This document shows, in pieces, positions 552 to 49,334 of a stretch of 64,000 nucleotides of DNA; within the stretch, counting starts at the first letter, position 1; the number at the start of each line of letters is the position of its first letter. The stretch lies in IMG/VR virus record IMGVR_UViG_3300042923_001092, positions 39,092 to 103,091 of that record. One strand, written 5' to 3'. The notes beneath the pieces were generated by a model. That model made no database searches. It was not told where the DNA came from and was given only the letters and a program-made list of their open reading frames with translations. A program made the position numbers and the translations under genes. This stretch comes from a virus.

Positions 552-581
552 ATTAAAAAAGAACTCATAAATGATATAATA
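552..581 (+). promoter_or_regulatory. Class II (SigF-like) promoter, variant -35
   Basis: ATTAA-N15-TGATATAATA upstream of the SF2 helicase. Confidence 0.55.
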
Positions 582-613
582 ATAAATATCGAATTAAATA
601 GGAGGAACTTCTA

Positions 614-2122
614 ATGATCGAAGTTATTATAGACAGTAGAATAAGACTTAATTGGAAAGAACTTCCAAAAGAAATGTTTAAAGAATTAAAAGAATCTTTA
701 ACTTATAAAAACCCTTTATATCAAAAAGGTTTAATGATGGGATATGGTACTAAAGGCGTTCCTCAGACTATAACTAGCTATGACATAGAAAAAGAAATAA
801 TGACAATATCCAGAGGTGCTAGCTATAAGTTAAAAGAAATTGCAAGAAATAATGATATAGAAATTAAATTCATAGACAATAGGATATCACTACCTTATGA
901 ATTTAATTCAGATATTGAACTAAGAGATTATCAAAAAAAGCCTTCTAATCAATTATTTCATTTTGAAAACGGTTTAGTTCAGGGACCTTGTGGTTGTGGT
1001 AAAACTATTATTCTTTTAAAAACAATAGAAAGAATAGGACAAAAAACATTAATTATAGTTCATGAACAAAAGCTTCAACAACAATGGTTCGATGAAATTC
1101 ATACTTTATTTAAAATCCCTAAAGAAGAGATTGGATTAATTGGTGGAATTTCTAAAGGAAAGAATAAGGTTAAACCAATAACTGTAGCACTTCAACAATC
1201 ACTTTTAAGATCTGCTGGTAAATATAAAGATGAATTTGGATGTATCGTTTGCGATGAAGTTCACAGATATGCAGCTTCAACATTTCAAGAAGTAGTAGAT
1301 GTATTTCCTGCAAAATTTAGAATAGGTGCCACTGCAACTCCAAAAAGAAAGGACGGCAAACATTTTCTTGTTTTTGATCAATTTGGAAAAATACTTCATG
1401 AAATTACTGAAGAAACACTTAAAGAAAATAATATGACTATGGATATTAAAGTTGTAGTAGTATTTACAGAATTTGAATATACCGGAATTATGGAAAGACA
1501 TAAAAATAGAATATTTAAAGGGAACGATTCTAATGGAAAAGCTATTTGGGAAGAACAAGAAATAGAATATGTAAATAACAATGAATATTTAGAACAAATA
1601 ATTTTAGATCAAAATAGAAATAGATTAATTTATAGATTTTTAAAAGAAGAAGTTGAAAATAAACAATACTGTATTTTATTATCAGACAGAAGAAGATTTT
1701 GCCATAATTGGCAAAGATGGTTAGAACAAAAAGGTATTGAATCTAAACTTTTAGTTGGTGGTTCTGAATATAAAGAAGAAGGTGATAATGCTATAAAGAG
1801 GATTGAAAAAGATGGCGATCTTTATGTTGTTATTGGAACTACAGTAGCAGACGAAGGTCTAAACATTAAAAAGCTTAGTAGAGGTTTCACTTCTACACCA
1901 ACAGCCACTAACGAAAGAAGAATAATTCAACAAACTGGTAGAATAAAGCGAATCTGTGAAGGCAAAAAAGATGCTATTTGGTATTATTTTTTAGATCATA
2001 AAGTTAAAGGTTCTGAAAAGCAATTAAAAATGTTAAAAAAACTTTTTAAAAATATTGAAATTCTTGAAACACCGGAAGATATAGATGAATATTTTCACAT
2101 AATGAAAGAAATAAAAGGATAA
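614..2122 (+). CDS. Superfamily 2 (DEAD/UvsW-like) helicase
   Basis: Walker A GPCGCGKT, DEVH, TAT, motif VI QQTGRIKR; RBS GGAGG. Confidence 0.9.
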   Translation: MIEVIIDSRIRLNWKELPKEMFKELKESLTYKNPLYQKGLMMGYGTKGVPQTITSYDIEKEIMTISRGASYKLKEIARNNDIEIKFIDNRISLPYEFNSDIELRDYQKKPSNQLFHFENGLVQGPCGCGKTIILLKTIERIGQKTLIIVHEQKLQQQWFDEIHTLFKIPKEEIGLIGGISKGKNKVKPITVALQQSLLRSAGKYKDEFGCIVCDEVHRYAASTFQEVVDVFPAKFRIGATATPKRKDGKHFLVFDQFGKILHEITEETLKENNMTMDIKVVVVFTEFEYTGIMERHKNRIFKGNDSNGKAIWEEQEIEYVNNNEYLEQIILDQNRNRLIYRFLKEEVENKQYCILLSDRRRFCHNWQRWLEQKGIESKLLVGGSEYKEEGDNAIKRIEKDGDLYVVIGTTVADEGLNIKKLSRGFTSTPTATNERRIIQQTGRIKRICEGKKDAIWYYFLDHKVKGSEKQLKMLKKLFKNIEILETPEDIDEYFHIMKEIKG

Positions 2123-2410
2123 ATTCTTTATCACCCGATAAAGAATTTTCTTGTTATCTTTAGATAACAGCTCACTTCTATTTCCTCTGGTAAGTTTTAA
2201 ATTTTAGAGCTTCCCCTCCCCATACCCCTCCCTTATATATATTTAAATATAGCTTTATATATATAATCATTTCTAAAATAAATATTTTAGAAATGGAAGA
2301 TAAAATCTTTCAGATTTTATATTCTATCTTTTAAAAGATCTTTTAAATATCTTTAAATAAACTTCTAATCTTATTTAAATCTTTTATAAGTCTATAATAT
2401 AAGACTAGAA
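2121..2410. other. Non-coding AT-rich region with at least 7 inverted repeats and a G4 motif; candidate replication origin
   Basis: Stems at 2121-2148 (12 bp), 2152-2169, 2233-2266, 2268-2295 (12 bp), 2300-2320; palindromes 2326-2346; sits upstream of the loader/DnaB/primase operon. Confidence 0.45.
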
Positions 2411-2485
2411 TATAAGATTAATAGAAATAACTGTAGAATTTAGAACAGCGCTGACGTTTAAATTTATTTTATTTTTTCTTTAGAA

Positions 2486-2515
2486 GTTAATAAATGAGTT
2501 TTTTGTGATATAATT
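2486..2515 (+). promoter_or_regulatory. Class II (SigF-like) promoter
   Basis: GTTAA-N15-TGATATAATT. Confidence 0.7.
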
Positions 2516-2571
2516 TAATTATGGACCAAAATTTATTTGATAGACAGTAATATCAAAACATATTTCATGAG

Positions 2572-3165
2572 GTGGATAAGTTGAAAAAAATAAAGAAAGC
2601 AGTGCCAATTAGGCCTGTTAAAAACTGTTCAAAACCAGATGATTTATTATCATTCATAAAAACAGATAAGAAAAAACAAACTCGAGCTAAAAATGGTGAA
2701 CGAGTTAAAATTGATAGATCAGCACCATCTAAATACCCTTCGCTTACACATTGGAAAAATAAAGAAATAGATAAGTGGATAAGCAACGATTTTATTGGTT
2801 TTTATTTATTTGTCTATAACGAAGTTGTTGGCGAAGAAGATATTACTTTTGCTGGAAGAAAAGCAGACGATACGATGGGAAAAGAAAAAGGCTGCTTAAA
2901 TAGATGCCTTAAAAATTTCTTTTTAGAAAATAACAACGAAATGAAAAATTACATCGAATACATAATAAGATGGTGGATATCACCGGATTCATTTCCAGAT
3001 TCATTGCCTTCATTCTGGTCTATATTCGGAACTAATGGAACTTTCGTTAAACAATATCGATCAACAAAAATTATTAAAAAGAAAAGCTTAAAAAGCAGAA
3101 AAGAAATTGATAATCATTATGCTGACAAACAAGCATGGGATAATTATTTTGATAAGGAGGATTAA
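2572..3165 (+). CDS. Hypothetical protein, possible replication initiator (start may be TTG 2581)
   Basis: Directly upstream of DnaC-like and DnaB genes; function inferred from synteny only. Confidence 0.4.
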   Translation: MDKLKKIKKAVPIRPVKNCSKPDDLLSFIKTDKKKQTRAKNGERVKIDRSAPSKYPSLTHWKNKEIDKWISNDFIGFYLFVYNEVVGEEDITFAGRKADDTMGKEKGCLNRCLKNFFLENNNEMKNYIEYIIRWWISPDSFPDSLPSFWSIFGTNGTFVKQYRSTKIIKKKSLKSRKEIDNHYADKQAWDNYFDKED

Positions 3166-3167
3166 TA

Positions 3168-3863
3168 ATGTATCAAGCTAATAAACTTATCTCATCAGCT
3201 TATAGAAAATATTCTAAATCTAATTTGCCAATGAAATATATTGATCATAATATTGAAGATTTTAGAATATTAGGAGATACTACAAAAGAAAAAAAGCATA
3301 ATCAACAAATGTTTGATAAATTTATGAATTATTATAATAATCTTGAAGAAAATTTAAAAAACGGACGAGGTATAATACTTTGTGGGTCTGTAGGTATTGC
3401 AAAAACATGGCTACTTACTCATTTATCAAAAAAAATTATTTCTATATTCGAAGAAGAAAATATAAACATACAAGAAAAAGAACAAGAAGGCGACCTCAAA
3501 TCAAATTCAAAATATAACAATTTTTATTATATACAGGCTACTACATTAAGTCAAATGGTTTTTACAACAGGACTTAATGAAGATGAGCTTAAAGTAAGAA
3601 GGGGAATAAAAACAATAGCAGGGCTGTGGATAGATGATATATCTAAACTTGCTGAAACAAAATCTGGCCATGAAATATCTTTTTTGGATGATATAATTAG
3701 GTGGAGAGATTTAAATCTTCTTTCGACATTTTATACTTCACAACTTCCATTTGATTCGTCCGGAGAACTTGAAGGATTAGATTCAGCTTTATCAAAACCT
3801 ATTCACGATATGATAAGAGGTAATTGTGAAATAATAACTTTTAGAGGAGAGAGTCAAAGATAA
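3168..3863 (+). CDS. DnaC/IstB-like AAA+ helicase loader
   Basis: GIILCGSVGIAKT (Walker A variant), LWIDD (Walker B), T-S-Q motif, position before dnaB. Confidence 0.7.
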   Translation: MYQANKLISSAYRKYSKSNLPMKYIDHNIEDFRILGDTTKEKKHNQQMFDKFMNYYNNLEENLKNGRGIILCGSVGIAKTWLLTHLSKKIISIFEEENINIQEKEQEGDLKSNSKYNNFYYIQATTLSQMVFTTGLNEDELKVRRGIKTIAGLWIDDISKLAETKSGHEISFLDDIIRWRDLNLLSTFYTSQLPFDSSGELEGLDSALSKPIHDMIRGNCEIITFRGESQR

Positions 3864-4048
3864 TGGAATTTAATAGAGACGAATATTGTAAAGCAAAAAA
3901 ATGTGGAGTCATGATATGTATGGAGGATGATGAAATAAAAGAAGAATGGAAAACGTTTGAAGTAGTAAAAAATAGTTGTTTAAAATGTGAAGCTTTTAAA
4001 TTTCATAAATGGCTTTTAGAAAATGATTATAGAATAGTAAAAGAATAG
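3863..4048 (+). CDS. Small Cys-containing hypothetical protein
   Basis: Translationally coupled ORF; CxxxxC and CxxC. Confidence 0.6.
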   Translation: MEFNRDEYCKAKKCGVMICMEDDEIKEEWKTFEVVKNSCLKCEAFKFHKWLLENDYRIVKE

Positions 4049-4061
4049 GCGGGTAATTGGT

Positions 4062-5483: not shown

Positions 5484-5491
5484 GTGATAAT

Positions 5492-6325
5492 ATGAAAATA
5501 AGAAAAGGCAATGATTATATTGATTTAATTGGATTAAATAATTTTTCATTAAAAGATACATTTGAATGTGGTCAATGTTTTAGATGGAAATTAATATCTG
5601 AGAATTTGTATCATGGGATAGCATATGGAAAGCCTTTAATAATTGAGCAAAAAGATGATTTTATTAGACTGTATACTAGCGGTAATGAATTTAGAAAATT
5701 CTGGAAAGATTATTTTGATCTTGATAGAGATTATAATAATATACGTAAAAAGATTCAATATGACAAATTCTTAAAAAAAGCTTCTCATTATGGAAAAGGT
5801 ATTAAGATATTAAAACAAGAACCATGGGAAGTACTTTGTTCATTTATTATATCGCAGCAAAATAATATTCCAAGAATCAAAAATATAGTAGAAAGAATTT
5901 CAGAAAAACATGGTGAAGTAATATATAAATATAATACAAAATTTTATGCCTTTCCAACACCGGAAAAAATTATAGAACTTGGAATAGTTGGACTTAAAGA
6001 ATTTGGTTTGGGTTATAGAGACACATATTTAATAGATGCTGCTTATGCTGTATTTAACAAAGAAATTGACTTAGAAAATCTTAAATATATATCTTCTGAA
6101 CAATCTTTAAAAGAATTAATGAAACTTAGAGGAGTAGGAACTAAAGTAGCAAATTGCGTTAACTTATTTGGATTACAACATATAGATTCATTTCCAATTG
6201 ATGTTTGGATTCAAAGAGTCATTGACGTTTATTATAATGGTCATATTGATATTATACCATATAAGGAAGTTGCTGGAATAGTACAACAATATATGTTTTA
6301 TTATATTAGAAATAAAGAGGTATAA
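5492..6325 (+). CDS. ogg: 8-oxoguanine DNA glycosylase/AP lyase (clostridial Ogg, HhH-GPD)
   Basis: DTFECGQCFRW, QEPWEVLCSFIISQQNNIPRI, HhH LRGVGTKVANC, FPIDVWI. Confidence 0.9.
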   Translation: MKIRKGNDYIDLIGLNNFSLKDTFECGQCFRWKLISENLYHGIAYGKPLIIEQKDDFIRLYTSGNEFRKFWKDYFDLDRDYNNIRKKIQYDKFLKKASHYGKGIKILKQEPWEVLCSFIISQQNNIPRIKNIVERISEKHGEVIYKYNTKFYAFPTPEKIIELGIVGLKEFGLGYRDTYLIDAAYAVFNKEIDLENLKYISSEQSLKELMKLRGVGTKVANCVNLFGLQHIDSFPIDVWIQRVIDVYYNGHIDIIPYKEVAGIVQQYMFYYIRNKEV

Positions 6326-6328: not shown

Positions 6329-7588
6329 ATGTCTGATATTATGAACAATATAGTTAAAAGAGGTAAACTTAAAAAAATTAAAAAAATGATAAATATGAAA
6401 GTGCTTCTTAAAGCAATTAATGTCACAACTAAATCAGCAAATATATATGGAGAGGAGTTATATGATTTATGTCCAGATCCAAAACATAAAGATTCATCTC
6501 CAAGTTGGTCTATAAATATTGAGCCAGAAAGTGAAAAGTTTGGTGTTCACAGTTGCTTTAGTTGTGGATATCGTGGCAACTTTATAACATTGACAAGAGA
6601 TAAACTGTCTCAATCCACCGGTAAGAAATTAACAAATGCAGATGCTATAGAATTTATTGTCAAATTATTCTCATTAGGAGATATTGATGAAGATTCGTTA
6701 TATGGATTAATACTTGATGAAAGAGAACAGATGTTGGAAGATTTTGAAAAAGAGCCAGAAGGTCCTAAAGAGTCAAGCTTACCAAATGATGAAAAATCAG
6801 GTTTTTTTAAACTTTTAAAACCTGAAAATAAATTATATTGGAATTACCTTACGAAGCCTATTTTAGAGGGCGGTAGAGGCATACCTGCCAACTTAATTGA
6901 TAAATATCATATTGGATTTTGTGATAGTGGTCTATATAGGAAAAGAATTATAATACCTTTTTGGCAAGAAGGTAAATTAATATCATTTCTTGCAAGAAGT
7001 GTATTACCAACTATAAAATCTCAAAAGAAAAATGGAGAAGATTTTATAATTTGTCCAGAGTGTGGTAAATTAAATGCTTTTATAAATAAAGAATGTACGA
7101 AGTGCGATTGTATTTTAACCGGATATGTTGTTAAGAAAGCTAGATCAAGATATCCAAAAGGAAGTACAATGGAATATATGCTTTGGGCATATGATGAGTT
7201 AGATTATAGTTTAGATTATGTAATTCTTTGTGAAGGGGCTATGGATAAACTAAGATTAGAAAGTCTTGGTTATAAAAATGTAATGTGCGTATTTGGAAAT
7301 AAAATATCAGATTTTCAAGTAGAACTTCTTAAAAAGTTTGAACAAAAGATAGGTAAAAAATTAAGAGTTTTTTTATTTCCAGATGCTGACGAAGGTGGAG
7401 ATATTTTAATAGATTTTGCTAACCAGAAAATAAAATATTTATTTCAAGCATTTGTTATAGAATTACCATGGATTGAGTCTAATCCATTAGATCCAGGAAG
7501 CGCAACAGAAAAGCAAATACGTATAGCAGTTAATACTTGTGAAAAATTATATAAAGTTTATATGAGAAAATTTGAAAAAAATTACTAG
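6329..7588 (+). CDS. dnaG: DnaG-type primase with an extra internal zinc ribbon
   Basis: CHC2 finger CPDPKH...CFSC; TOPRIM ILCEGAMD and FPDADEGG; extra CPEC...CTKC. Confidence 0.85.
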   Translation: MSDIMNNIVKRGKLKKIKKMINMKVLLKAINVTTKSANIYGEELYDLCPDPKHKDSSPSWSINIEPESEKFGVHSCFSCGYRGNFITLTRDKLSQSTGKKLTNADAIEFIVKLFSLGDIDEDSLYGLILDEREQMLEDFEKEPEGPKESSLPNDEKSGFFKLLKPENKLYWNYLTKPILEGGRGIPANLIDKYHIGFCDSGLYRKRIIIPFWQEGKLISFLARSVLPTIKSQKKNGEDFIICPECGKLNAFINKECTKCDCILTGYVVKKARSRYPKGSTMEYMLWAYDELDYSLDYVILCEGAMDKLRLESLGYKNVMCVFGNKISDFQVELLKKFEQKIGKKLRVFLFPDADEGGDILIDFANQKIKYLFQAFVIELPWIESNPLDPGSATEKQIRIAVNTCEKLYKVYMRKFEKNY

Positions 7589-7594: not shown

Positions 7595-7624
7595 ATTTAT
7601 TTTTAAATTTCTTAGGATATAATA
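7595..7624 (+). promoter_or_regulatory. Class II (SigF-like) promoter, variant -35
   Basis: ATTTA-N15-GGATATAATA. Confidence 0.55.
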
Positions 7625-9242: not shown

Positions 9243-9272
9243 GTTAAAAAAAGAAATTATTTTGATATTATT
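9243..9272 (+). promoter_or_regulatory. Class II (SigF-like) promoter
   Basis: GTTAA-N15-TGATATTATT. Confidence 0.7.
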
Positions 9273-9300: not shown

Positions 9301-11202
9301 ATGGCTGTAAAATTATTAAAACAAAAAAAAGAATTTAATGAACAGCAACAAGAAGTAATAAACCATAATTATGGGGCATGTGTAGTAGTAGCCGTTGCTG
9401 GAGCTGGTAAAACTACAGCTGTTGTTGAAAGAATAAATAGAATGTTAAGAAATGGAATAGCAAGACCAAGTCAGATTTGTGCTACTACATTTACGAAAAA
9501 AGCTGCTGGTGAAATGAATGACAGACTTAAAGCTTTAGGTGTAGATACTGACGAAATGCAAGTTTCTACTTTTCATTCAATTTGTTATAAAATAATGCTC
9601 GAGGAGCTTAAAAAAGTCAAAGCCAAATACGATTTAGATGCCACTGGAAGTAAGTCTAAAGCGCTTTTAAAATATGTATTGGGTTATCAATGTATGGATT
9701 GGAAAACAGCTAATATCAGTGAAGTAGATATGTTTATATCCAATTGTAAAAATTCATTATTAAGACCTAAAGATTTAGATATAAATGTATGTGGTTATTA
9801 TTTAAAACAAGCATATGAGTTATATGAAAAAAATAGAGAAGAAAGACAATTTTTAACATTTGACGATATGCTTATTAGATGTTGGGAAATATTTGATGAA
9901 CATCCAGAAATTTTAAAATATTGGCAATCTAAATTTAAATTTGTAATTGTAGATGAGTTTCAAGATACTAATAAGGCACAATATGAAATAATGAAAATGC
10001 TATCATATCCGGAAAATAATTTAATGGTGGTTGGCGATGATGACCAGTCTATATATAAGTTCAGAGGAGCAGTACCAGAATATATGATTAATTTTGAAAA
10101 TGATTTTAATGCTAGAGTAATAAGGATGGAAAAAAACTATAGATGCCCTCAAATTATTGGTAAATTAGCTAATCCTCTTATTTCTAATAATGAAAAAAGA
10201 TTAATTAAAGTTCTTTCTGCACAAAAACAAAATGAAGGCAATTTAAAAATTATAGATTGTTATGATTTTGACGAGGAAGCTGCTATGGTAACTGAATATA
10301 TAAAATCGTTACCCGAATTTATAAATAAACAGTATGGAAAAATATCAGTTCTATATCGTGCTAATGCCCAATCTAGGGCGATCGAAGATATGCTTATAAT
10401 GGAAAATATACCTTACGAATTAGTTGGTGGTATGAACTTCTATCAAAGAAAAGAAATAAAAGATATATTACATTATTTTTATGCAGCATTTGATTCTCAA
10501 GGCAGGGGCGAGGAGGGATATGAAAGAATTATAAATGTCCCTTTTAGATATATAGGCAAAGCATTTATGGAAGATTTACAAAAATTTAGAAAAAATACTG
10601 GATGTAGCTTTGAAAGAGCCTTAAAAGATATGAGAATGACTCCAAATCAAGAAAGATCTATAGATAGTCTTTTAGATGTTATAGATACTATAAGAAAAAG
10701 AAAGCAAGAAAATCCTCAAATATTGATTTCCTGGTTAGTAAATGAGATTGGCTATTATGATTATCTCGTTAAACAAGAAGGTGATAAAGAAGAAGAAAGT
10801 AGTAGATCTTCTAATATAAAAGAATTGATACGTGCATCTGGTAAATTTAGTACTGTAGAAAAATTTATAGAATATATAGATATGTTAAATACTAAGAAAA
10901 AGAAAAATGGTCCAAAAAATAAAGTTATACTTTCTACTATACATAGATCAAAAGGGCTTGAATGGGATAATGTAATTATAATAGGATTAAACGAATTATT
11001 ACTCCCACATAGCAGGAGTTTAGATCCAGAATCTATTGAAGAAGAAAGAAGACTTGCATATGTAGCTATAACAAGATCAAAAGAAAGACTATTATTAAGT
11101 TTTGTTCAAACTGCATCTGTTGGTGGAGGAATTAGAGAATTAAAGCCTAGTAGATTTATTTCGGAAATGGGATTAGCTGGTAAAGGTAAATATTTATATT
11201 AA
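9301..11202 (+). CDS. pcrA: UvrD/PcrA-family SF1 helicase
   Basis: AVAGAGKTT, TTFTKKAAGEM, VDEFQDTN, VGDDDQSIYKFRGA, STIHRSKGLEW, EERRLAYVAITR. Confidence 0.95.
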   Translation: MAVKLLKQKKEFNEQQQEVINHNYGACVVVAVAGAGKTTAVVERINRMLRNGIARPSQICATTFTKKAAGEMNDRLKALGVDTDEMQVSTFHSICYKIMLEELKKVKAKYDLDATGSKSKALLKYVLGYQCMDWKTANISEVDMFISNCKNSLLRPKDLDINVCGYYLKQAYELYEKNREERQFLTFDDMLIRCWEIFDEHPEILKYWQSKFKFVIVDEFQDTNKAQYEIMKMLSYPENNLMVVGDDDQSIYKFRGAVPEYMINFENDFNARVIRMEKNYRCPQIIGKLANPLISNNEKRLIKVLSAQKQNEGNLKIIDCYDFDEEAAMVTEYIKSLPEFINKQYGKISVLYRANAQSRAIEDMLIMENIPYELVGGMNFYQRKEIKDILHYFYAAFDSQGRGEEGYERIINVPFRYIGKAFMEDLQKFRKNTGCSFERALKDMRMTPNQERSIDSLLDVIDTIRKRKQENPQILISWLVNEIGYYDYLVKQEGDKEEESSRSSNIKELIRASGKFSTVEKFIEYIDMLNTKKKKNGPKNKVILSTIHRSKGLEWDNVIIIGLNELLLPHSRSLDPESIEEERRLAYVAITRSKERLLLSFVQTASVGGGIRELKPSRFISEMGLAGKGKYLY

Positions 11203-11231
11203 AATAAATGATAATATTTTGTCAAAATGGG

Positions 11232-11260
11232 TTTACAAATTGTTTCTTATTAATTATAAT
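11232..11260 (+). promoter_or_regulatory. sigmaA-type promoter
   Basis: TTTACA-N17-TATAAT upstream of the sigma-like gene. Confidence 0.75.
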
Positions 11261-11341
11261 AATATTATAAATTTAAATTATAACCAAATAGATAATACAT
11301 TATAACGAAATAAGAAAATTTGTAAATTTGGGAGGTTACAT

Positions 11342-12082
11342 ATGGAGGAGAAGAAATTTGACGAGTCTAAAATTCTTTTATATAAAGAGACTGGAGACGA
11401 GTCAATATTTGAAGAAATTATTTCAAATAAAGATATAAAGAAATATATATATTCAGTATGTCATGACAAAATGAGGAATTATCCTAGTTCTTTAATGGGA
11501 TTTGATGATTTCGAAAGTCAAGCTTATTTAGTGTTATGGCAATGTATTAAGAAATATAAATTTCGATGTCCAATATGTGGTATTCAAGCTAAAACCGAAT
11601 CGGTATATAAACTTCATATGCTAACAAAACACAATGAATATCGAGAACCAGCAACGAGTATATCTAAATACATAAAGTTTAATCTCGGTGCATATCTTCA
11701 AAATGAATTAAGGAAAGAATATAGTGAAGAAAGAAAGTCTAATATAATGACTGTTAGTATTTATTCCGGCCAAAACAGTGAAGAAAAAGATGAGACTATT
11801 AATGATAGAGTTGAATTTGAATTTTGTCAATCAAATGGTTTTGAAGATGATGTTGTTTTTAAACAATTTTTGAATGATCTTGTCGATAAATTTGATTCTC
11901 AAACAAAAGAGATTTTTATAATGATGTTTTTAGAAAATATGAAACAAATAGATATAGCTAATACTTTATATAGACAAGGAAGATATGCAAGCGAACAATC
12001 GGCTTCTGTAGTAGTCTCTAGGACTATAAAAACTAAAATATATCCTGCTATAACTGAGATATATAGCAAGACTAATATTTAG
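11342..12082 (+). CDS. Phage sigma-70-family factor with inserted C2H2 zinc finger
   Basis: Region 2-like DDFESQAYLVLWQCIKKY...ISKYIKFNLGAYLQNELRKE; region 4-like TKEIFIMMFLENMKQIDIANTL; insert CPICG...KLHMLTKH. Confidence 0.65.
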   Translation: MEEKKFDESKILLYKETGDESIFEEIISNKDIKKYIYSVCHDKMRNYPSSLMGFDDFESQAYLVLWQCIKKYKFRCPICGIQAKTESVYKLHMLTKHNEYREPATSISKYIKFNLGAYLQNELRKEYSEERKSNIMTVSIYSGQNSEEKDETINDRVEFEFCQSNGFEDDVVFKQFLNDLVDKFDSQTKEIFIMMFLENMKQIDIANTLYRQGRYASEQSASVVVSRTIKTKIYPAITEIYSKTNI

Positions 12083-12127: not shown

Positions 12128-12157
12128 GTTTATTTTTGTAGTTAAGATGATATATTA
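12128..12157 (+). promoter_or_regulatory. Class II (SigF-like) promoter
   Basis: GTTTA-N15-TGATATATTA. Confidence 0.7.
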
Positions 12158-13147: not shown

Positions 13148-13177
13148 GTTAATAAATGACAAATGAATAATATTATA
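13148..13177 (+). promoter_or_regulatory. Class II (SigF-like) promoter of the nucleotide-modification operon
   Basis: GTTAA-N15-TAATATTATA. Confidence 0.65.
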
Positions 13178-15059: not shown

Positions 15060-15135
15060 ACCATTAGGTGCATTATTTTGAGCTGTCTATAAAGGTTCTA
15101 AATAGGTTAAATTTATTATTGGAAGGGGTTTTAAA

Positions 15136-17970: not shown

Positions 17971-18000
17971 GTTAATAAATGATTCTAATATGATATAATA
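17971..18000 (+). promoter_or_regulatory. Class II (SigF-like) promoter
   Basis: GTTAA-N15-TGATATAATA. Confidence 0.75.
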
Positions 18001-22700: not shown

Positions 22701-23441
22701 CCTAAAGACGATAAGACTATAATACCTTCATTAACTTTTATTAAAGGTGTTGGTGAAGCTGCAGTTCCTCAAATTGTTAAGCACCAGCCATATGCCACTT
22801 TAGAGTCATTCTTTGAATGTGATATGGATTGGAGGTTAGTTAATAAAAGGGTTGTTGAAGCATTAATCCAGACAGGGTCTTTTAACAATCTATATCCGTA
22901 TAGGAAAACATTATTGGAGGTATATACAAAGTGGAATGCTGCTGGTAAAAAGAACTTTTCAAAAATACTTGAAAAAGTAGAAAATGAAATGGGTCAAGTT
23001 GATATAGACTTTGACGAGGGAATGATTATTGAAAAAGAATTATTTGGATTTTATTTCAGTGCTAATCCATTAGACAAATATAAAGAAATTGTAAAAGAAA
23101 GAGAAATAAAAGAAGTAAGTGACTTAGCAAAAGGTAAGAAATGGAAAAAAGGGACACTTTATGGAATAATTACTAAAGCATTTCCATATAAGATTGCAAA
23201 AGGTAACATGTGTTTTGTAGATATACAAGGAAAAGATGAAACAAAAGCAAATATTACAGTTTGGCCAGAAATATATGAACAATATAAAGATATTATAAAA
23301 GAAGGAAATGTAGTCGCTATAAAAGTCAAACCCGGTAAAGGTAAAAATGATGAACCTTGTTTTTATGTTGATGAAAGCGACGAGCGAAAGAAGGTAATCT
23401 TAATGGAGCAATTATTAAAAATTAAATCAAAGCAACGTTAA
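19752..23441 (+). CDS. dnaE: DNA polymerase III alpha subunit (family C) with PHP domain
   Basis: HIHTDYS, TEHGN, GPGRGSAAG, FERFLN..R.DPPDIDLDF, GLLKFDILGL, YSFNKSHS. Confidence 0.97.
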   Translation: MSKFCPKINGPVVYLDCLECDYRVCVKGGKELAKIIKKIKQPEQEVPDKKVKKIKSSEIDEQVKEAKKNIRQKSVPVMESKYSGIIKPRNVAIPTRDLIQFIPEHIHTDYSTKDAAMSIDEYIESLKEMGFKGGTITEHGNMSSSVKFYKAMKANGLKPILGNEIYTDDNIELKIEASLERSKRKKDDEAAEGGYLDDEYGHLVVLAPTNEAYNELLLTTAKGFRDGFYKRPRVTHEWILNEASKHQITTTACLASKFNYYIRCGQDKEAKQLLSDYKSAFGDRFYAELHFNELEIQRYCTNKLLEFCKELKIPWMIGLDAHYAKKEHAEYHDYMKDMFYKGSLSKPSSLRYNTRELYLKNSNEVLHSALKWDYGIDQKDIIIGLNRTNELYDRTTFEMEMGKLRFPKFSNDPNFDPVAELKKKCIRGYNKRKKQGLLPAPGYADQDYKDRFNKEFPVIVSKGYADYFLIVSEYTDYCVQTELFKGPGRGSAAGALISWLLDITKIDPIRYGLFFERFLNEERADPPDIDLDFDSERRFEIEELLIRKNGPEKVAHIMSFGTWGCKSILGELSKVFELPWGVVDKLKKLCNDDQSLQENIDRILGIKPVKKIKKDGTVQEIFEIPSPDIKEFIENNEKFFTVCKFFEGKVRNYSMHASGVVVTPGPMEELAPINRASGQIVTGLQEGGDIREISDIGLLKFDILGLNNCTIVNRTLKSIKRRKGITIDIDAIDLEDDNLLERFRKGHTTGIFQFESTGITKFMKDIQPQRLEDLIIVNAAYRPGTLRAGGVDAIIENRHSDNIDYMHPAIEEVLGPTYNVLVYQEQQMALMAQVGGFTMVEADKSRKTIKLINKASTASPEQLKKFYDMIEHFKQGAHEKTGLSHEKLQKLVDAMAAAADYSFNKSHSCSYAIIAMQDMYLKHYYPADYAAAFLSRTKNEEKKGKAGHKTGENKIEKYVKMAIIEMDLNIAPPDVSISGVDWIPKDDKTIIPSLTFIKGVGEAAVPQIVKHQPYATLESFFECDMDWRLVNKRVVEALIQTGSFNNLYPYRKTLLEVYTKWNAAGKKNFSKILEKVENEMGQVDIDFDEGMIIEKELFGFYFSANPLDKYKEIVKEREIKEVSDLAKGKKWKKGTLYGIITKAFPYKIAKGNMCFVDIQGKDETKANITVWPEIYEQYKDIIKEGNVVAIKVKPGKGKNDEPCFYVDESDERKKVILMEQLLKIKSKQR

Positions 23442-23466
23442 TTTTTGAATCTATACCAATATAATA
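23437..23466 (+). promoter_or_regulatory. Class II (SigF-like) promoter
   Basis: GTTAA-N15-CAATATAATA. Confidence 0.6.
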
Positions 23467-26385: not shown

Positions 26386-26415
26386 GTTAATAAGAGACTT
26401 ATTAATGATATAATA
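26386..26415 (+). promoter_or_regulatory. Class II (SigF-like) promoter
   Basis: GTTAA-N15-TGATATAATA. Confidence 0.75.
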
Positions 26416-26435: not shown

Positions 26436-26744
26436 ATGTGTATTTGTAATCCAAATAATAGAACACCATTTTGTGGTAAACCCGGATGTGAAATGCCTGA
26501 GCGAGAAGCTGGTTGTCTAGAACCAAAGAAGTATGATATTTCAGAAGATCTAGAAAATAGATTTTCTTATCATTCTCCAAAGCCCGATCAAATAGGTAAA
26601 TACGAAAGAATAAGAGATATGGCTAAAGAATTTGCTTACCTAATAAGAGATAATTGCCCAGATTCTAGAGAAGCATCTTTAGCAATTACTAAAATAGAAG
26701 AATCTGTATTTTGGGCTAACGCCAGTATAGCGAGGGAAAAATAA
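26436..26744 (+). CDS. Acb2/Tad1-hairpin-like protein (candidate signalling-nucleotide sponge)
   Basis: NRFSYHSPK.DQ..KYE.IR..AKEFAYLI..NCPDSREASLAITKIEESVFWANASIAR. Confidence 0.65.
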   Translation: MCICNPNNRTPFCGKPGCEMPEREAGCLEPKKYDISEDLENRFSYHSPKPDQIGKYERIRDMAKEFAYLIRDNCPDSREASLAITKIEESVFWANASIAREK

Positions 26745-28009: not shown

Positions 28010-28039
28010 GTTAATTTGTTGTTGTCTATTGATATTATA
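28010..28039 (+). promoter_or_regulatory. Class II (SigF-like) promoter
   Basis: GTTAA-N15-TGATATTATA. Confidence 0.7.
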
Positions 28040-35556: not shown

Positions 35557-35586
35557 GTTTACTTTTGCCAAAAACGTGATATTATT
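35557..35586 (+). promoter_or_regulatory. Class II (SigF-like) promoter of the structured RNA and HU
   Basis: GTTTA-N15-TGATATTATT. Confidence 0.7.
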
Positions 35587-35601
35587 ATATTATAACCACG
35601 G

Positions 35602-35750
35602 ATTATTACCTTAACAGGCTGTCCAATATCCAAAGTGGATTAGCTACCCACGAATAATGGCATTCCTAGGTTGCATGGCTAAAGAGTCACTCGGCTCGAA
35701 AAGGTTCGAATCCTTTACATTAGTATTGGATAACCTGTTAAGGTAATAAT
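35602..35750 (+). ncRNA. Structured RNA with long terminal stem and tRNA-type T-arm
   Basis: 35602-35628 pairs with 35724-35750 (first 17 bp perfect, one mismatch overall); AAAGG-TTCGAAT-CCTTT at 35700-35716. Confidence 0.65.
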
Positions 35751-35787
35751 ACCAAAAAAATAATTTATTTTATAGGAGGATTTTATT

Positions 35788-36156
35788 ATGGCAGGTATCG
35801 GTGATATCGCAAAGGCTGCTGGAGTTAAGTATGAGGCAGTATCCGCAACAATCGAAGGAATTAGATCTTTATTAATGCAGGGAGAAAAAATTACACTTCA
35901 GGATTTCGGTACATTTTATATCGATGTTCAGGACAAAAAAGTTGCTCGCAAGGTTGCTACCAGCGAAAAGATTGATGTTCCGGAGAAGTCCGTTCCCAAG
36001 TTCAGATTTAATTACACTTTCAAAGCAAAAGTCGCTGAAAAGGTTAAAGTCGATAAGGAAAAGCTTCAGAAGAAGAGGGAACGTAAAGCTAAGTATGATG
36101 CCAAGATGGCTGAAAAAGCCGGCACTAAGGCACCGACTGGTAAAAAATCTAAATAA
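35788..36156 (+). CDS. hup: HU/IHF-family DNA-binding protein with Lys-rich tail
   Basis: GEKITLQDFGTFYI....KVARKVAT.EKIDVPEKSVPKFR. Confidence 0.85.
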   Translation: MAGIGDIAKAAGVKYEAVSATIEGIRSLLMQGEKITLQDFGTFYIDVQDKKVARKVATSEKIDVPEKSVPKFRFNYTFKAKVAEKVKVDKEKLQKKRERKAKYDAKMAEKAGTKAPTGKKSK

Positions 36157-36237: not shown

Positions 36238-36267
36238 GTTTATTTTTGTCGTCAAAATGATATTATT
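36238..36267 (+). promoter_or_regulatory. Class II (SigF-like) promoter
   Basis: GTTTA-N15-TGATATTATT. Confidence 0.7.
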
Positions 36268-40927: not shown

Positions 40928-40957
40928 GTTAATTTTTGAATCTTAATTGATATAATA
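40928..40957 (+). promoter_or_regulatory. Class II (SigF-like) promoter
   Basis: GTTAA-N15-TGATATAATA. Confidence 0.75.
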
Positions 40958-43915: not shown

Positions 43916-43945
43916 TATTATATCCTATATGAATCATTAATAAAC
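43916..43945 (-). promoter_or_regulatory. Class II (SigF-like) promoter of the SASP gene
   Basis: Minus strand GTTTA-N15-GGATATAATA. Confidence 0.75.
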
Positions 43946-44092: not shown

Positions 44093-44122
44093 TTTTAATA
44101 TTGACTCAATGATGATATAATA
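44093..44122 (+). promoter_or_regulatory. Class II promoter, variant -35
   Basis: TTTTA-N15-TGATATAATA. Confidence 0.5.
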
Positions 44123-44443: not shown

Positions 44444-44868
44444 TGAAATATTGTGCAGAGCTTAGTTGGCTAGAAATTATAACGACACATCAATTTCTAG
44501 CCATGTTATATAAGAAAAAATATAAAATCGAAAGTATCCCAGAAAGAGATATACCAAAATTTACATCAAAAAAGATGATGTTTGTATATCAAGCTTTTGC
44601 AGATGCTTGTACATTTTATGATATAACCGGATTAGAATATTTAAACATTAAAAAAATTAAAGCAGAAGAAAAAAATGGTATTTGGAACTTTAAATACAAA
44701 TATAAAAAAGGATTATTTGCTGAATATAATGAGATAAAAGATTATGATGAAAATTGGGAAGAAAAAATAAAGGAAGAAGAACTTAAAAGAAAAGAAGCTA
44801 AAAAAGAACAAGAAAGAAAAAGAAAAGAAGATGAAAGAAGAATAAAAAGAATATCGAGAGGAAGATAA
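44440..44868 (+). CDS. Hypothetical protein with charged tail
   Basis: Coupled ORF. Confidence 0.6.
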   Translation: MMKYCAELSWLEIITTHQFLAMLYKKKYKIESIPERDIPKFTSKKMMFVYQAFADACTFYDITGLEYLNIKKIKAEEKNGIWNFKYKYKKGLFAEYNEIKDYDENWEEKIKEEELKRKEAKKEQERKRKEDERRIKRISRGR

Positions 44869-44869
44869 G

Positions 44870-45355: not shown

Positions 45356-45516
45356 TGATGCTTTAGACAGTCATTAGAACTTTTATTTTATTTATGGTAT
45401 TTTTACCTTAAAGCATAATTTAAATACTCTATTTAGGGTCTAAAATAGGCTTAATTATATCAATAATTAGTTTTTATAAACATTAAATATAATTTTTAAT
45501 TCTGAATAAAAAGATA

Positions 45517-45545
45517 TTTACAAATAGAGTATAGAATATTATAAT
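45517..45545 (+). promoter_or_regulatory. sigmaA-type promoter
   Basis: TTTACA-N17-TATAAT. Confidence 0.8.
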
Positions 45546-45584
45546 TAAACTGTAAGGTTAAATAAATCAAATGGAGGTTATTAA

Positions 45585-46232
45585 ATGGCTAATACTAAAG
45601 CAACAAATAAAAGTAATAAAGCTAAAGCAAATACCAATCAGAAAAAGCAAGAATCTAAAGAAGTAATTAAACCTGCAGATCAATCTTTAGAATCTAAAGA
45701 GGTTGTAGAAGAAGTTACAAAAGAGGTTACAGAAGTTAAAGAAGAAATTGTAGAAGAAAAGAAAGATACTGAGACTAAAACTGATAACAAAAAATTAACA
45801 GAAGAAGAAAAAGAGAAAGTCAAAAAGGAAGCAGAAGCTGCTCAAAAACTATATGATGCTATTCTTTTGGAAATTGAAAAAATTATTCCAAAAGATAAGT
45901 TTAAAAGCAAAACAAATAATTCTGGAGTAACATTCTTTGGTACTGAAGGTACTAGGGCATTTAAAGTAGTAAAAGCAAAGAAAGGTGTTAAGCTTGAACT
46001 TAATGTTCCGGTATCTAAAGTTGAAAACTTAACAATATTAACAGAAAAAGAGGCTTCTGAAAAGCATATGGGAACTTGTAGATGGATTTATATTGGAGAT
46101 GATATCAAAACTATAAAAAATCTAATAAAGGAAGCTGTTGAAAAATACGAACCTAAAAAACGTTCTGATTCTAAAGAAGAAAAGGATAAAAGGGAAGCTA
46201 AAGAAAAAGAAACTAAAGAAAGTAAAGAATAA
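45585..46232 (+). CDS. Charged protein with domain paralogous to the ORF 12210 C-terminus
   Basis: SGVTF...AFKVVKAKKGVKLELN...LTILTEKEASEKHMGT aligns with TGITY...ILKAVKTGKVLVVEFN...LTKYTEEQAKQKHLGT. Confidence 0.75.
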   Translation: MANTKATNKSNKAKANTNQKKQESKEVIKPADQSLESKEVVEEVTKEVTEVKEEIVEEKKDTETKTDNKKLTEEEKEKVKKEAEAAQKLYDAILLEIEKIIPKDKFKSKTNNSGVTFFGTEGTRAFKVVKAKKGVKLELNVPVSKVENLTILTEKEASEKHMGTCRWIYIGDDIKTIKNLIKEAVEKYEPKKRSDSKEEKDKREAKEKETKESKE

Positions 46233-46238
46233 ATATAA

Positions 46239-46336
46239 GGGCTGTGTTATCGAGGAGCATTCCTCAATTGTAAACATTCAATTTTTCTTCTTAAAGTCCA
46301 AGAGAATTTGGTCAATGCTCTTGGATAACACAGCCC
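46239..46336 (+). ncRNA. Candidate structured RNA (about 23-bp closing stem, branched interior)
   Basis: GGGCTGTGTTATC / GATAACACAGCCC plus GAGCATT / AATGCTC; followed by a terminator. Confidence 0.45.
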
Positions 46337-46343
46337 AAATTTT

Positions 46344-46368
46344 AAGGTCTATTTAATGGACCTTTTTA
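46344..46368 (+). terminator. Rho-independent terminator
   Basis: AAGGTC-N9-GACCTT-TTT. Confidence 0.65.
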
Positions 46369-46375
46369 TTTTTGA

Positions 46376-46405
46376 GTTAATTTGTATTTTCTATATGATA
46401 TAATA
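46376..46405 (+). promoter_or_regulatory. Class II (SigF-like) promoter
   Basis: GTTAA-N15-TGATATAATA. Confidence 0.75.
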
Positions 46406-46427
46406 TAAAATAGGTGATTAAAAGTAT

Positions 46428-46456
46428 TTTACAATTTGAGAATAGAATGGTATAAT
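46428..46456 (+). promoter_or_regulatory. sigmaA-type promoter (identical to the one at 56456 over 39 bp)
   Basis: TTTACA-N17-TATAAT with TG at -15/-14. Confidence 0.8.
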
Positions 46457-46486
46457 TTATATATAAACTTAAGGAGGAATTTAAAA

Positions 46487-46882
46487 TTGAGTGATGTTTT
46501 AAAAGAAACATTCGATAATTTATTTAATAATCTTGATACTTATGAAGTAATGCCTAAAATGGTAGAAAAAGTAACAAGTGATGTTATTCATTCTGAATTT
46601 GATGGAATGAAAGAACATAGTATTTGTTACCATATATCCGGAATGGTAGATATAATTTTAGCTGCTAAACAGTCATTAAGTTTATTAGTTATAGAATCAA
46701 AAATATTAGATATAGATTTAGAATCCGAAATGGATGCAGAACAGTATCTAAAATTAACAAAACTGATTGATGCATTTAAAAAGAATGATTGCATTTGTGA
46801 AAATGTAGAATCAAAAGAAATTTCAAATGGTTATTTCGAAGTAAGATGTAAAGACTGTGGCCGAACTTGGGTTGATGGTTGA
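46487..46882 (+). CDS. Hypothetical protein with C-terminal Cys motif (start TTG 46487)
   Basis: RBS AAGGAGG; CIC...CKDC. Confidence 0.6.
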   Translation: MSDVLKETFDNLFNNLDTYEVMPKMVEKVTSDVIHSEFDGMKEHSICYHISGMVDIILAAKQSLSLLVIESKILDIDLESEMDAEQYLKLTKLIDAFKKNDCICENVESKEISNGYFEVRCKDCGRTWVDG

Positions 46883-46910
46883 ACATAGAAAAAATAATAG
46901 GAGGTATAAG

Positions 46911-47360
46911 ATGGTAAAGAAAATTTTAATTGCACCTCATCCAATCCTTAAAAAAGTATGCGAAGAAGTACAGGATTTTAATGAGGAAGTAAAAACCGAA
47001 GCATTAGATTTAGAGGAAACATTAAAAGCTAACTTAAGAAAAGCAGTAGGACTTGCAGCCAGTCAAATAGGTTATATACATAGAATCATAGCATTTATGG
47101 ATCTTAAAGATGGAAATGTAATATCTATGATTAATCCGGTAATAACTTATTATTCTAAAGATGATATGATTCATGAATTTGAAGCCTGTGTGAGTTATCC
47201 AGGCAAGAGGAAAAAGATATATAGAGCTAAAGAAATTGTAGTTGAAGGATATTCTCATTCTGGTGTTCCAATCAAATATTCAATGGAAGATTTACAGGCC
47301 AGGATAATACAGCATGAGGTTGATCATTTAAACGGCAAATGTAGAGTGTCTATGAGATAA
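46911..47360 (+). CDS. def: Peptide deformylase
   Basis: VGLAASQIG, EACVSYP, ARIIQHEVDHLNG. Confidence 0.9.
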   Translation: MVKKILIAPHPILKKVCEEVQDFNEEVKTEALDLEETLKANLRKAVGLAASQIGYIHRIIAFMDLKDGNVISMINPVITYYSKDDMIHEFEACVSYPGKRKKIYRAKEIVVEGYSHSGVPIKYSMEDLQARIIQHEVDHLNGKCRVSMR

Positions 47361-47419
47361 GGAGGCAGCAATGAGAGTAAGTGGTAGAATGAAGAAAATT
47401 AAAAAGGAGGAGAAAAAGA

Positions 47420-47710
47420 ATGCCAAGATTTGAAAAGAAAAATCGCAATGAGCCTACTGTACAAGAGCTTAAAGATTTATTTGAAAGAATGATTGATGAT
47501 GGTATGGGAGATCATACAGTAAGACTATGGCATCAACCAAGCTGGCCATTTTTATTAAGTATTGGTAAAGTAGCTACAGTTTATGAAGAAGAGTTGGATG
47601 AAGATGATCCAGAGTATGATGAAAATGCAAATAAGTTTGTTTATCTTTGTGAAGGAAGACAGTTATGCTACGGACCTAAAAAAGATGAACTTGAAGAATA
47701 TGGGGGTTGA
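47420..47710 (+). CDS. Hypothetical acidic protein
   Basis: RBS AAGGAGG. Confidence 0.65.
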   Translation: MPRFEKKNRNEPTVQELKDLFERMIDDGMGDHTVRLWHQPSWPFLLSIGKVATVYEEELDEDDPEYDENANKFVYLCEGRQLCYGPKKDELEEYGG

Positions 47711-47973
47711 TTATGCAAAAAATCAAAAAACAAACTATGTCACAGCCAGTACAAGTAGCTCAACAAAAGAAATCGTCAGCAATCAATAGATCTGAAAGGC
47801 CTACTGCTAAATCAAGTGGCTCTCTTTCTGGTTTGATTGATAACGCAAAGAAAGCTTTAAAAAAGGCCGGTTTCAAGGCACAAGCTGATGAAATGGAAGA
47901 CAGGTGCTTAGATTCTGGAGACTATGATGAAGTGCTTTCTATCTTAAATGAATATGTAATTATTGATGATTAA
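47707..47973 (+). CDS. Hypothetical phage protein
   Basis: Coupled ORF followed by a terminator. Confidence 0.6.
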   Translation: MIMQKIKKQTMSQPVQVAQQKKSSAINRSERPTAKSSGSLSGLIDNAKKALKKAGFKAQADEMEDRCLDSGDYDEVLSILNEYVIIDD

Positions 47974-47979
47974 TAATCT

Positions 47980-48010
47980 AAGGATTGGCTAACAACCAAT
48001 CCTTTCTTTT
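47980..48010 (+). terminator. Rho-independent terminator
   Basis: AAGGATTGG-CTAACAA-CCAATCCTT-TCTTTT. Confidence 0.8.
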
Positions 48011-48020
48011 TAAAAAGTAA

Positions 48021-48049
48021 TTTACAAAATGATTCTATTATATTATAAT
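48021..48049 (+). promoter_or_regulatory. sigmaA-type promoter
   Basis: TTTACA-N17-TATAAT. Confidence 0.8.
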
Positions 48050-48085
48050 TATATTATAAACAAAGGAAAGGAAAGGTATAAGATA

Positions 48086-48724
48086 ATGGGAAATTACGAA
48101 GCAGTTATTTTTAAAAACAATCAAGTAAGAATGGTAGGGGAGGTGATATCTGATTTTAGTTATAGTCATGTAACATTTGGTGAAGGTTTTTATGTAGTTA
48201 ATGTAGCCGTTGAAAGATTAAGTACATATGTGGATATTATACCGGTTATGGTATCTGAGCGGTTAGTAGATATAAAAAATGACTTTAAAGGTCTTTGGGT
48301 AGAAATTACCGGACAGTTTAGATCTTACAGTAACCATGAAGATGGTAAAAATAAGTTAGTTCTTTCAGTATTTGCCAGAGAGTTTAAAGAGGCGGCTGAG
48401 GAGCTTAAAGTTGCTAATTCAATTTTTATAGATGGGTTTGTCTGCAAGCCTCCTATTTATAGAAAGACTCCTCTTGGAAGAGAAATTTCTGACTTGTTAA
48501 TTGCGGTTAACAGGCCTTATGGTAAAAGTGATTATATTCCATGTGTCTGCTGGGGAAGAGATGCAAGATTTGCGGAAAATCTTATAGTTGGTGACAGGAT
48601 AGCAGTAAATGGAAGAATCCAATGCAGAGAATATATTAAAAAACTTGAGAATGACATTGCAGAAACAAGAATAGCTTATGAAGTATCAGCGGCTACTATT
48701 GCATATTCTGTTGGAGAGGAGTAA
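48086..48724 (+). CDS. ssb: Clostridial-type tandem-OB single-stranded DNA-binding protein
   Basis: FSYSH..FGEGFY...V.RLS..VDIIP; RKTPLGREISDLLIAVNRPYGKSDYIPC.CWGR. Confidence 0.88.
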   Translation: MGNYEAVIFKNNQVRMVGEVISDFSYSHVTFGEGFYVVNVAVERLSTYVDIIPVMVSERLVDIKNDFKGLWVEITGQFRSYSNHEDGKNKLVLSVFAREFKEAAEELKVANSIFIDGFVCKPPIYRKTPLGREISDLLIAVNRPYGKSDYIPCVCWGRDARFAENLIVGDRIAVNGRIQCREYIKKLENDIAETRIAYEVSAATIAYSVGEE

Positions 48725-49142
48725 CATGGAAGGTGATTTTCTTTGGGAGCAATGGTGTATTAAAAACAATCTCCCTAAAACTTATGAAGAAATGAAAAAG
48801 TCTTATTGTAATATATCTACTGAACTTGCTGATGAAGTTTGGGATAGCCAGTTAGATAAATATGCAAGAGATGGTTCTAAAAAAATAATAAGGTATTGTG
48901 ATTCTGATCATCTTGCTTTTGTTTATGATTTATATAAAACTACAGAAAAGGCTGGAATATCTGTAATCACAATAGACGATAAAAATCTTTGCAAGTATTT
49001 TGTCGTTGCAACTCTAAATAATGAGAGTTTTGTAATCAACATTACAGATATGGATGCAATCGATAAACCAAGGTTTATAGCTGGTGTATTATCAAATAAT
49101 TTTACCGGAATTGATGGCATAGAAATTTATAAAAAGATATAG
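48678..49142 (+). CDS. Hypothetical protein (start probably ATG 48726)
   Basis: RBS GAGAGG upstream of 48726. Confidence 0.55.
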   Translation: MKYQRLLLHILLERSNMEGDFLWEQWCIKNNLPKTYEEMKKSYCNISTELADEVWDSQLDKYARDGSKKIIRYCDSDHLAFVYDLYKTTEKAGISVITIDDKNLCKYFVVATLNNESFVINITDMDAIDKPRFIAGVLSNNFTGIDGIEIYKKI

Positions 49143-49304
49143 GAGGGATTATGGAAGTTTTATTAGCAATATTTTTCGCATTCATAATAGCTTTAGTATT
49201 TGGATATATTGCTAGTAGCATCGCAAGAGTATGGGGTCATATTAAATCTAGTGACCCCGACGGTGCTTCTGATGAATATATTGAATAATTAATGCATTGC
49301 AGGA

Positions 49305-49334
49305 GTTAATTTTAATTGTCTTGTTAATATAATA
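49305..49334 (+). promoter_or_regulatory. Class II (SigF-like) promoter
   Basis: GTTAA-N15-TAATATAATA. Confidence 0.65.

Follow-up and report, generated by a model that had tools for sequence, protein, structure and literature searches.

A rigidly spaced promoter class in the replication module of an uncultured soil phage and the sigma-like protein that may read it

Which factor reads a two-box promoter motif that recurs, with the same spacing each time, in front of the replication genes of a phage? The question is raised by a 64,000-nt stretch of DNA (the window), corresponding to bases 39092-103091 of IMG/VR record IMGVR_UViG_3300042923_001092, a virus record that consists of a single contig of 107,581 bp and has direct terminal repeats, a GC content of about 29% and nearly all of its genes on the + strand. 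The genome is laid out in modules, with structural genes at 2-39 kb, and genes for replication and nucleotide metabolism at 39.5-90 kb (window 500-51,000); small genes make up the arms at 90-107 kb and 0-2 kb. The DNA of this uncultured soil phage was present only in two soil metagenome DNA runs, and a megablast search of GenBank phages with 12 kb of it gave no match. The original prediction had described the motif as a SigF-like promoter class read by one of two sigma-like proteins of the phage itself, gp11342 or gp50386, and possibly also by SigF or SigG of the host. Temporal classes of promoters read by phage sigma factors are textbook knowledge, but have been worked out in only a few phages. 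Positions given below are those of the window unless marked as genome positions.

The class II promoters of the replication module

The pattern GTTWA-N15-KRATATWWTW, here called class II, had 14 exact matches in the window (13 on the + strand and 1 on the - strand), as compared with 0.15 expected from dinucleotide shuffles, and the rest of the 107.6-kb genome, outside the window, held no additional exact match. When the spacing was varied over the whole genome, each of the 11 other spacings within 10-21 gave 0-1 matches, against the 14 found at 15, so that both the class and its invariant spacing stood as originally proposed. A weight matrix made from the 14 exact sites yielded 17 sites of at least 19 bits (null expectation below 0.1), thereby adding those at 23437, 7595 and 44093, and inclusion of a weaker variant at 552 gave 18 sites in all. 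Each site was oriented toward the next gene, and all were found within the replication and nucleotide-metabolism module, followed on the same strand by a start codon at a distance of 10-203 nt and, in 5 of 17 cases, preceded by a terminator-like hairpin. The genes thus served, which agree with the earlier description of mostly replication, modification and recombination genes, encode helicases, primase, UvrD, two ThyX-type proteins, an Acb2/Tad1-like protein followed by RecA, an HU-like protein, a HIRAN-domain protein, a SASP, and a PemK-fold protein followed by a sigma factor.

An unsupervised scan for dyads (5-mer, gap, 5-mer) returned two families, one being GTTAA-N15-TGATA and the other TTTAC-N18-TATAA with its shifts (16 copies, P about 1e-16). 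The latter represents an early class of near-canonical sigmaA promoters, TTTACA-N17-TATAAT, with about 17 sites distributed over the arms of small genes and a few positions within the replication module, among them 11232-11260 before gene 11342, one for the SSB gene (48086) and one before gene 46487 in tandem with a class II site. These early promoters mostly carry TGG before the hexamer and have a conserved spacer; read in the same register, the upstream box of class II is GTTWAT. Cross-scoring between the two classes was low, the early matrix giving class II sites -33 to 18 bits and the class II matrix giving early sites at most 13 bits. The structural module contained neither class II nor early sites.

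Pooling 46 sites from the phage and its relatives gave the consensus nGTTWATwnnTG-N9-TGATATaATannAtTA, which is longer than the motif originally described. G was near-invariant at the first box position (40/46), the -35 word being GTTTA in 17 and GTTAA in 29 of the sites, and a TG was found within the spacer at 10-11 nt into the motif. In the hexamer, T, A and T were each present in 46/46, followed by A or T (34 and 12), A (42/46) and T (45/46). When the -10 side was left free, TGA, TAA, CAA or GGA preceded TATWWT in class II, with the A essentially invariant (immediately before TATAAT in 45/46 of the pooled sites).

The class could also be followed in related phages. In a set of 5.8 billion proteins, gp11342 had 14 homologues at 51-77% identity, encoded on syntenic contigs; a single-protein scan of viral contigs with gp11342 gave nothing, and an alignment-based scan then retrieved a 111,051-bp IMG/VR record, 100% complete according to CheckV, hereafter G001 (loci L001 and L008-L016), the other relatives being L003, L004, L018 and L019. 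All five related contigs carried class II-like sites at orthologous positions, for example upstream of the UvrD gene and of the ThyX paralogue and immediately downstream of the sigma-like gene, with the boxes conserved and the spacers drifting between the phage and its relatives. G001 had 13 exact matches, all on the gene strand, versus 1 for a reversed-pattern control, and 17 sites of at least 16 bits by matrix. With regard to its host, the 2.1-Mb bin containing G001 was not informative, since it had neither a match to Spo0A_C nor a SASP of its own. Word searches of the literature for the motif found nothing relevant.

A distinct and conserved two-box motif upstream of replication and metabolism genes, absent from the early and structural modules, is what would be expected of a middle class read by a phage sigma factor. 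Judged from these sequence comparisons, class II is a real, conserved, discrete and non-housekeeping promoter class of the replication module with rigid spacing.

gp11342 as candidate reader

The first of the two candidate readers, gp11342 (11342-12082, + strand), is a divergent sigma-like protein with a sigma2 and a sigma4 domain, the former interrupted by a C2H2-type zinc finger. Its family matches were weak (TIGR02937 at 9e-7; phrog_1740), while its AlphaFold2 model (pLDDT 76) showed two helical domains for which all 50 of the 50 top PDB matches were sigma factors. When the first 135 residues were modelled together with the clamp helices of the B. subtilis beta' subunit (residues 256-287), the complex scored 0.77 as compared with 0.01 for the best of three controls, a mark that 58 of 80 solved complexes and 2 of 110 mismatched pairs attained, with a run agreement of at least 93% and a partner pLDDT of at least 84. 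Such a model speaks of likeness and not of binding, and it may reflect a memory of solved sigma-beta' complexes. The family is rare, with 8 clusters at E<1e-30 among 1.84 billion representatives; comparison of its profile with SPO1 gp28, SPO1 gp34 and gp50386 gave no significant similarity (hhalign against gp34, E 0.28), and tblastn of GenBank phages with gp11342 gave no match. By its modelled fold, the gp11342 family is a sigma family without a described member, with an unusual zinc-finger insertion.

The gene for gp11342 is preceded on the + strand by a sigmaA-type early promoter at 11232-11260 (TTTACA-N17-TATAAT), which scored 26.3 bits on the early matrix versus 3.6 on the class II matrix. 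The early matrix likewise outscored the class II matrix upstream of the 11342 orthologue in G001, L003, L018 and L019, with L004 being ambiguous. A host-type early promoter upstream of a phage sigma-fold gene is the arrangement known for middle classes of the SPO1 gp28 type.

The most economical model is, in our view, an SPO1-like cascade with gp11342 made early. The sigmaA holoenzyme of the host would read the TTTACA-N17-TATAAT promoters, one of which would drive gene 11342; gp11342, being a minimal sigma factor with sigma2, sigma4 and the finger within sigma2, would bind the host core polymerase and redirect it to the about 18 class II promoters of the helicase, primase, UvrD, thymidylate-synthase, RecA, HU-like, SASP and other replication-module genes. 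We lean, if only somewhat, toward this reading, according to which a gp11342-family sigma on the core RNA polymerase of the host would read class II as a middle promoter class, in the way of SPO1 gp28, and which sustains the phage-encoded sigma of the original prediction for gp11342 while dropping gp50386. We favour it because the two promoter classes emerge unsupervised, barely cross-score and segregate by module, because class II has features that sigmaA does not select (the first G of the box, the spacer TG and the A before TATAAT), and because the class is kept in five contigs together with gp11342 orthologues, in four of them under an early-type promoter. It is further favoured by the sigma fold and modelled beta' contact of gp11342, by the lack of conservation of gp50386 in G001, by the reported dispensability for lytic growth of sporulation-like phage sigmas that stand beside phage-clade sigmas, as treated below, and by a change of motif that tracks divergence of the sigma-like protein in a more distant relative.

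That relative, the 91.7-kb contig L023, encodes a gp11342 homologue of 28% identity in which the zinc finger is kept and the helices resembling region 2.3/2.4 and region 4 differ. Its syntenic replication module had no class II sites; it had seven + strand copies of rGTTATATwAT, versus a null expectation of 0.075, and none on the - strand, and in five of the seven ATTCTG preceded the motif by exactly 11 nt. An intermediate relative, L021, had class II words with one extra base in the spacer at the site that follows its sigma-like gene. The covariation seen with L023 is a single comparison at the level of lineages and not a statistic; the phage clade and L023 form a natural specificity-swap pair. 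A more far-reaching possibility, put forward tentatively and as rather less probable than the assignment itself, is that this rare minimal sigma family, with a C2H2 finger in sigma2 and no sigma3, recognises a hybrid promoter made of a housekeeping-like -10 and a rigidly spaced box of its own, that the inserted finger would read the extended -10 and spacer bases (TGA and the spacer TG), and that promoter and sigma would co-diverge between lineages (GTTWAT-N14-TGATATWAT versus ATTCTG-N11-GTTATATWAT).

The likeness to SPO1 (sigmaA, then gp28 for middle and gp33/gp34 for late genes) extends to host-type early promoters, an early phage sigma gene among replication genes, a distinct two-box class before middle genes, a large Firmicute-type phage, and the carriage in both phages of an extra sporulation-like sigma together with a SASP gene on the minus strand. 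The differences are the zinc-finger insertion and the lack of significant profile similarity to gp28 or gp34 mentioned above, as well as the sigmaA-like -10 of class II; class II bears no relation to AGGAGA / TTTNTTT, the consensus of SPO1 middle promoters. The late promoters of SPO1 read CGTTAGA(N17-19)GATATT (PMC3601020), to which class II, as cGTTAAT ... GATATW, conforms in 5/7 and up to 6/6 letters; the separation is, however, 15 instead of 17-19, replication genes rather than late genes are served, and no homologue of gp34 or gp33 was detected.

Several points weigh against gp11342 as the reader. The assignment draws on the order of the genes, on promoter logic and on a single distant relative that covaries, and since no RNA run was found to contain the phage, timing and start sites are inferred. 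No sigma3 domain was detectable in gp11342, hence no evident reader of the TGA. No late promoter class was found, which leaves the cascade incomplete and gp11342 without another assigned role, the latter being counted on the side of an activator as discussed next. Finally, class II has a perfect sigmaA extended -10 and matched a generic sigma70 scan at 9-10 of 12 positions, read as TTAATA-N16-TATAAT with TG, so that sigmaA may read the class either unaided or with an activator; generic matches of this kind do abound in such AT-rich DNA (134 found versus 108 expected). If gp11342 is indeed the reader, the system would be a further example of a known mode of phage gene timing. Its regulon is clean, about 18 sites having conserved orthologous copies, and together with the undescribed sigma family and the specificity-swap pair it makes rules of sigma-promoter recognition directly testable.

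Rival readings and the sporulation-like sigma gp50386

The main and serious rival is that host sigmaA recognises class II through its extended -10 while the GTTWAT...TG box is bound by a putative early activator of the phage, in the manner of T4 MotA/AsiA, whereupon gp11342 would serve another step, such as expression of late genes. The original prediction had itself cautioned that TGnTATAAT is a sigmaA extended -10, and this caveat was correct: the -10 side of class II is identical to the form used in low-GC Firmicutes, including the TG, which lies one base upstream of the hexamer in 36/46 of the pooled sites, and TATAAT/TATTAT. Host promoters of this type have a weak -35 or none, and in the AT-rich C. 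difficile they comprise 245 of 743 SigA promoters (PMC7438776). The phage also has dozens of early genes without an assigned function, and the T4 middle promoters (MotA box plus sigma70 -10, by sigma appropriation) resemble class II in joining a host-like -10 to a phage-specific box that replaces the -35 before replication genes. Here, however, the candidate factor is a sigma-fold protein instead, no homologue of MotA or AsiA was seen, although no search was aimed at them, and no candidate for an activator was found. Within the module, the sole early gene that is both conserved and regulator-like is that of gp11342, whose orthologues in G001, L003, L018 and L019 keep the early-type promoter. 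The invariant A at the n position is furthermore not a feature of sigmaA, and the motif changes in L023 in parallel with the divergence of the sigma-like protein. We thus regard an activator acting with sigmaA as rather unlikely, although clearly ahead of the remaining two explanations.

It is improbable, in our judgement, that class II sites are merely ordinary strong sigmaA extended -10 promoters, needing no phage factor and having an upstream box that is a mere habit of the lineage. In addition to the perfect -10 side, this would be in line with TTAATA at 16 nt matching TTGACA in 4/6 positions; more generally, the box agreed with TTGACA in 1-2/6 positions at 17-nt spacing and, as TTWATw, in 3-4/6 at 16 nt. 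A sigmaA class of this kind should have a -35 that is either TTGACA-like or unconserved, whereas class II has a conserved non-sigmaA box, GTTWAT, distinct from the TTTACA of the early class, as well as the spacer TG. Two sharply separated -35 classes segregated by module within one genome, one gene carrying both in tandem, and box positions that sigmaA does not read being conserved across six contigs while spacers drift, all argue against it.

The 'SigF-like' label, and with it a forespore-type promoter read by gp50386 and possibly by SigF or SigG of the host, fared worst and is very unlikely to hold. The SigB/F/G group, to which gp50386 belongs, typically uses G-T-rich -35 boxes, and class II shares with the forespore promoters of B. 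subtilis and Clostridia a -35 word of five bases that starts with G and stands 15 nt from the -10 block; of this word the GTTTA subset (17/46) fits the SigF word GYWTA and the GTTAA majority (29/46) does not. In the -10 block, GGnrAnAnTw, the leading G is replaced by T in 42/46 sites and the purine by T in 46/46, and the SigG form CATnnTA is absent. None of the class II sites matched GYWTA-N15-GGNRANANTW, not even the copy at the SASP gene, which has GG before ATATAAT and had originally been taken as a close fit. Strict B. subtilis-type patterns for SigF, SigG, SigB, SigE, SigK and SigH were not enriched, and the single SigF-pattern match, located in the terminal repeat inside an open reading frame, is probably due to chance. 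Since the -10 matches the sigmaA extended -10 fully and that of SigF in part, neither the label nor reading by host SigF or SigG is supported.

With regard to gp50386 itself (50386-51105, + strand), this protein is a sigma factor of the SigB/F/G family (TIGR02980 at 2.6e-34, below the curated equivalog cut-offs) with a best non-self homologue of only 41% identity, and its gene lies downstream of the class II promoter at 49305. No orthologue was found in the complete G001, which keeps its 17 class II sites and encodes exactly one Sigma70_r2 protein, a SigK/E-like sigma that is 26% identical to gp50386 and located at a different locus, beside the SASP gene. Because the class is unchanged between the two phages while the sigma has been exchanged for one of another type, gp50386 is unlikely to be the reader. 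As weaker evidence, three distant phage contigs with gp50386-like sigmas had no class II sites within the 7-21 kb around that gene. Sporulation-like phage sigmas have been found to co-occur with phage-clade sigmas that run the lytic programme, and to be dispensable for lytic growth, as for SP10 g120, while perturbing sporulation of the host (bioRxiv 10.1101/2021.11.12.468384). We conclude that gp50386 is probably an auxiliary sigma and not the class II reader. The putative working sigma of the phage can thereby be separated from the sporulation-like one, and as the latter varies between close relatives, it fits the idea of manipulating host dormancy rather than that of running the phage programme.

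As a separate observation, a gene of PemK/MazF fold lies immediately upstream of the gp50386 gene (49352-51105 for the pair), and the same pair was seen in the distant contigs L005, L006 and L007. The two genes may constitute a functional module, for example with the PemK/MazF-fold protein as a regulator of the sigma.

Individual sites and neighbouring features

All class II sites are on the + strand unless otherwise stated. Thirteen of the 14 sites originally listed as exact were so, the exception being 23437-23466 before ThyX (Pfam Thy1), which still scored 25.4 bits with a -10 side starting with CA; conversely, an exact site at 6227-6256 (27.6 bits) had been missed. The latter is located inside the 3' end of an OGG-like gene (5492-6325), 74 nt before the primase gene at 6329, the adjoining genes being OGG_N and Toprim by Pfam. 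This OGG/HhH-GPD DNA glycosylase-like gene sits between dnaB and the primase gene, and is not found at that place in G001 or L003. Among the three variants with one change in the -35 word, two proved good, namely 7595-7624 before a 70-aa gene (ATTTA box, GG before ATATAAT, 24.4 bits) and 44093-44122 before a 96-aa gene (TTTTA box, 19.5 bits), while 552-581, before a DEAD/ResIII helicase gene at 614, was weak at 12.7 bits, with an ATTAA box and an orthologous ATTAA-type site of 21.4 bits in G001.

The remaining sites were exact. Those at 2486-2515 (before a 194-aa gene; 32.7 bits) and 17971-18000 (before the ThyX paralogue; the top score, 37.6 bits) have orthologous sites in G001 and L003, and that at 9243-9272, before the UvrD-like helicase gene at 9301, has such sites in G001, L003 and L018. 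Directly 3' of the sigma-like gene, the site at 12128-12157 has the -10 form TGATATATT, which is kept at the same place in G001, L003 and L004, with class II-like sites having variant -10 words in L018 and L019. Terminators precede the sites at 13148-13177 (before a 305-aa gene), 26386-26415 (before the Acb2/Tad1-like gene and recA), 28010-28039 (before a 159-aa gene) and 36238-36267 (before a 67-aa gene; 37.2 bits). A HIRAN-domain gene follows the site at 40928-40957, and the GG-form site on the minus strand, 43916-43945, precedes the alpha/beta-type SASP gene (Pfam SASP, 1e-25), which is the only minus-strand gene nearby. The site at 46376-46405 stands in tandem with an early-type promoter at 46428-46456, both before gene 46487, and the last site, 49305-49334, precedes the PemK-fold gene and the SigF/G-like sigma gene. 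Downstream of the promoter at 26386, the Acb2/Tad1 hairpin-domain protein gene (26436-26744; Pfam, 3e-22) directly precedes recA.

The site at 35557-35586 is followed by a conserved non-coding leader of about 200 nt (35587-35787) and an HU-like gene at 35788. In this leader we noted a long closing stem (predicted -57.5 kcal/mol) and a T-arm-like hairpin, GGTTCGAATCC, that is kept in G001; neither the leader nor the rest of the window had a match in Rfam or tRNA scans.

Some further promoter-like blocks were seen. In the gap upstream of the sigma-like gene (11196-11326), two sigmaA-like promoters lie on the minus strand, one of them a TTTACA-N16-TATAAT ending at 11299, directed antisense into the UvrD gene; they may provide antisense control around the switch gene. 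A guessed late pattern, GTTWA-N14-17-AWTGA, was not enriched. The only conserved promoter-like block of the structural module was found at genome 2490-2518, outside the window and before the first gene of that module; it has a CGTTTAT box of class II type, downstream of which the element differs (AGTTTAAATGAA), shows 90% identity between the phage and G001, and may on this sequence evidence be a late promoter. The structural module also has long hairpins at genome 4723-4866, 25283-25387, 29961-30174 and 37615-37750, just upstream of several structural genes, with stems of 13-15 bp of the AGACCCTGnTAGA / TCTAnCAGGGTCT type around AT-rich loops of about 50 nt; the stem motif is common to G001, and the hairpins could act as sites of RNA processing or as unusual promoters. 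A third, small family of motifs at 328-613, 15060-15135, 45356-45584 and 53051-53173 has a TGTCTA-type box, the spacer GTTCTAAATAGG and then TTAAAT/TATAGT, thereby resembling early promoters with another -35, and related TAGACnnnGTCTA palindromes recur. Lastly, a GC-richer non-coding island of about 900 bp with many GAGCTC-type palindromes (62336-63246) lies before an early promoter, and a similar island is present in G001.

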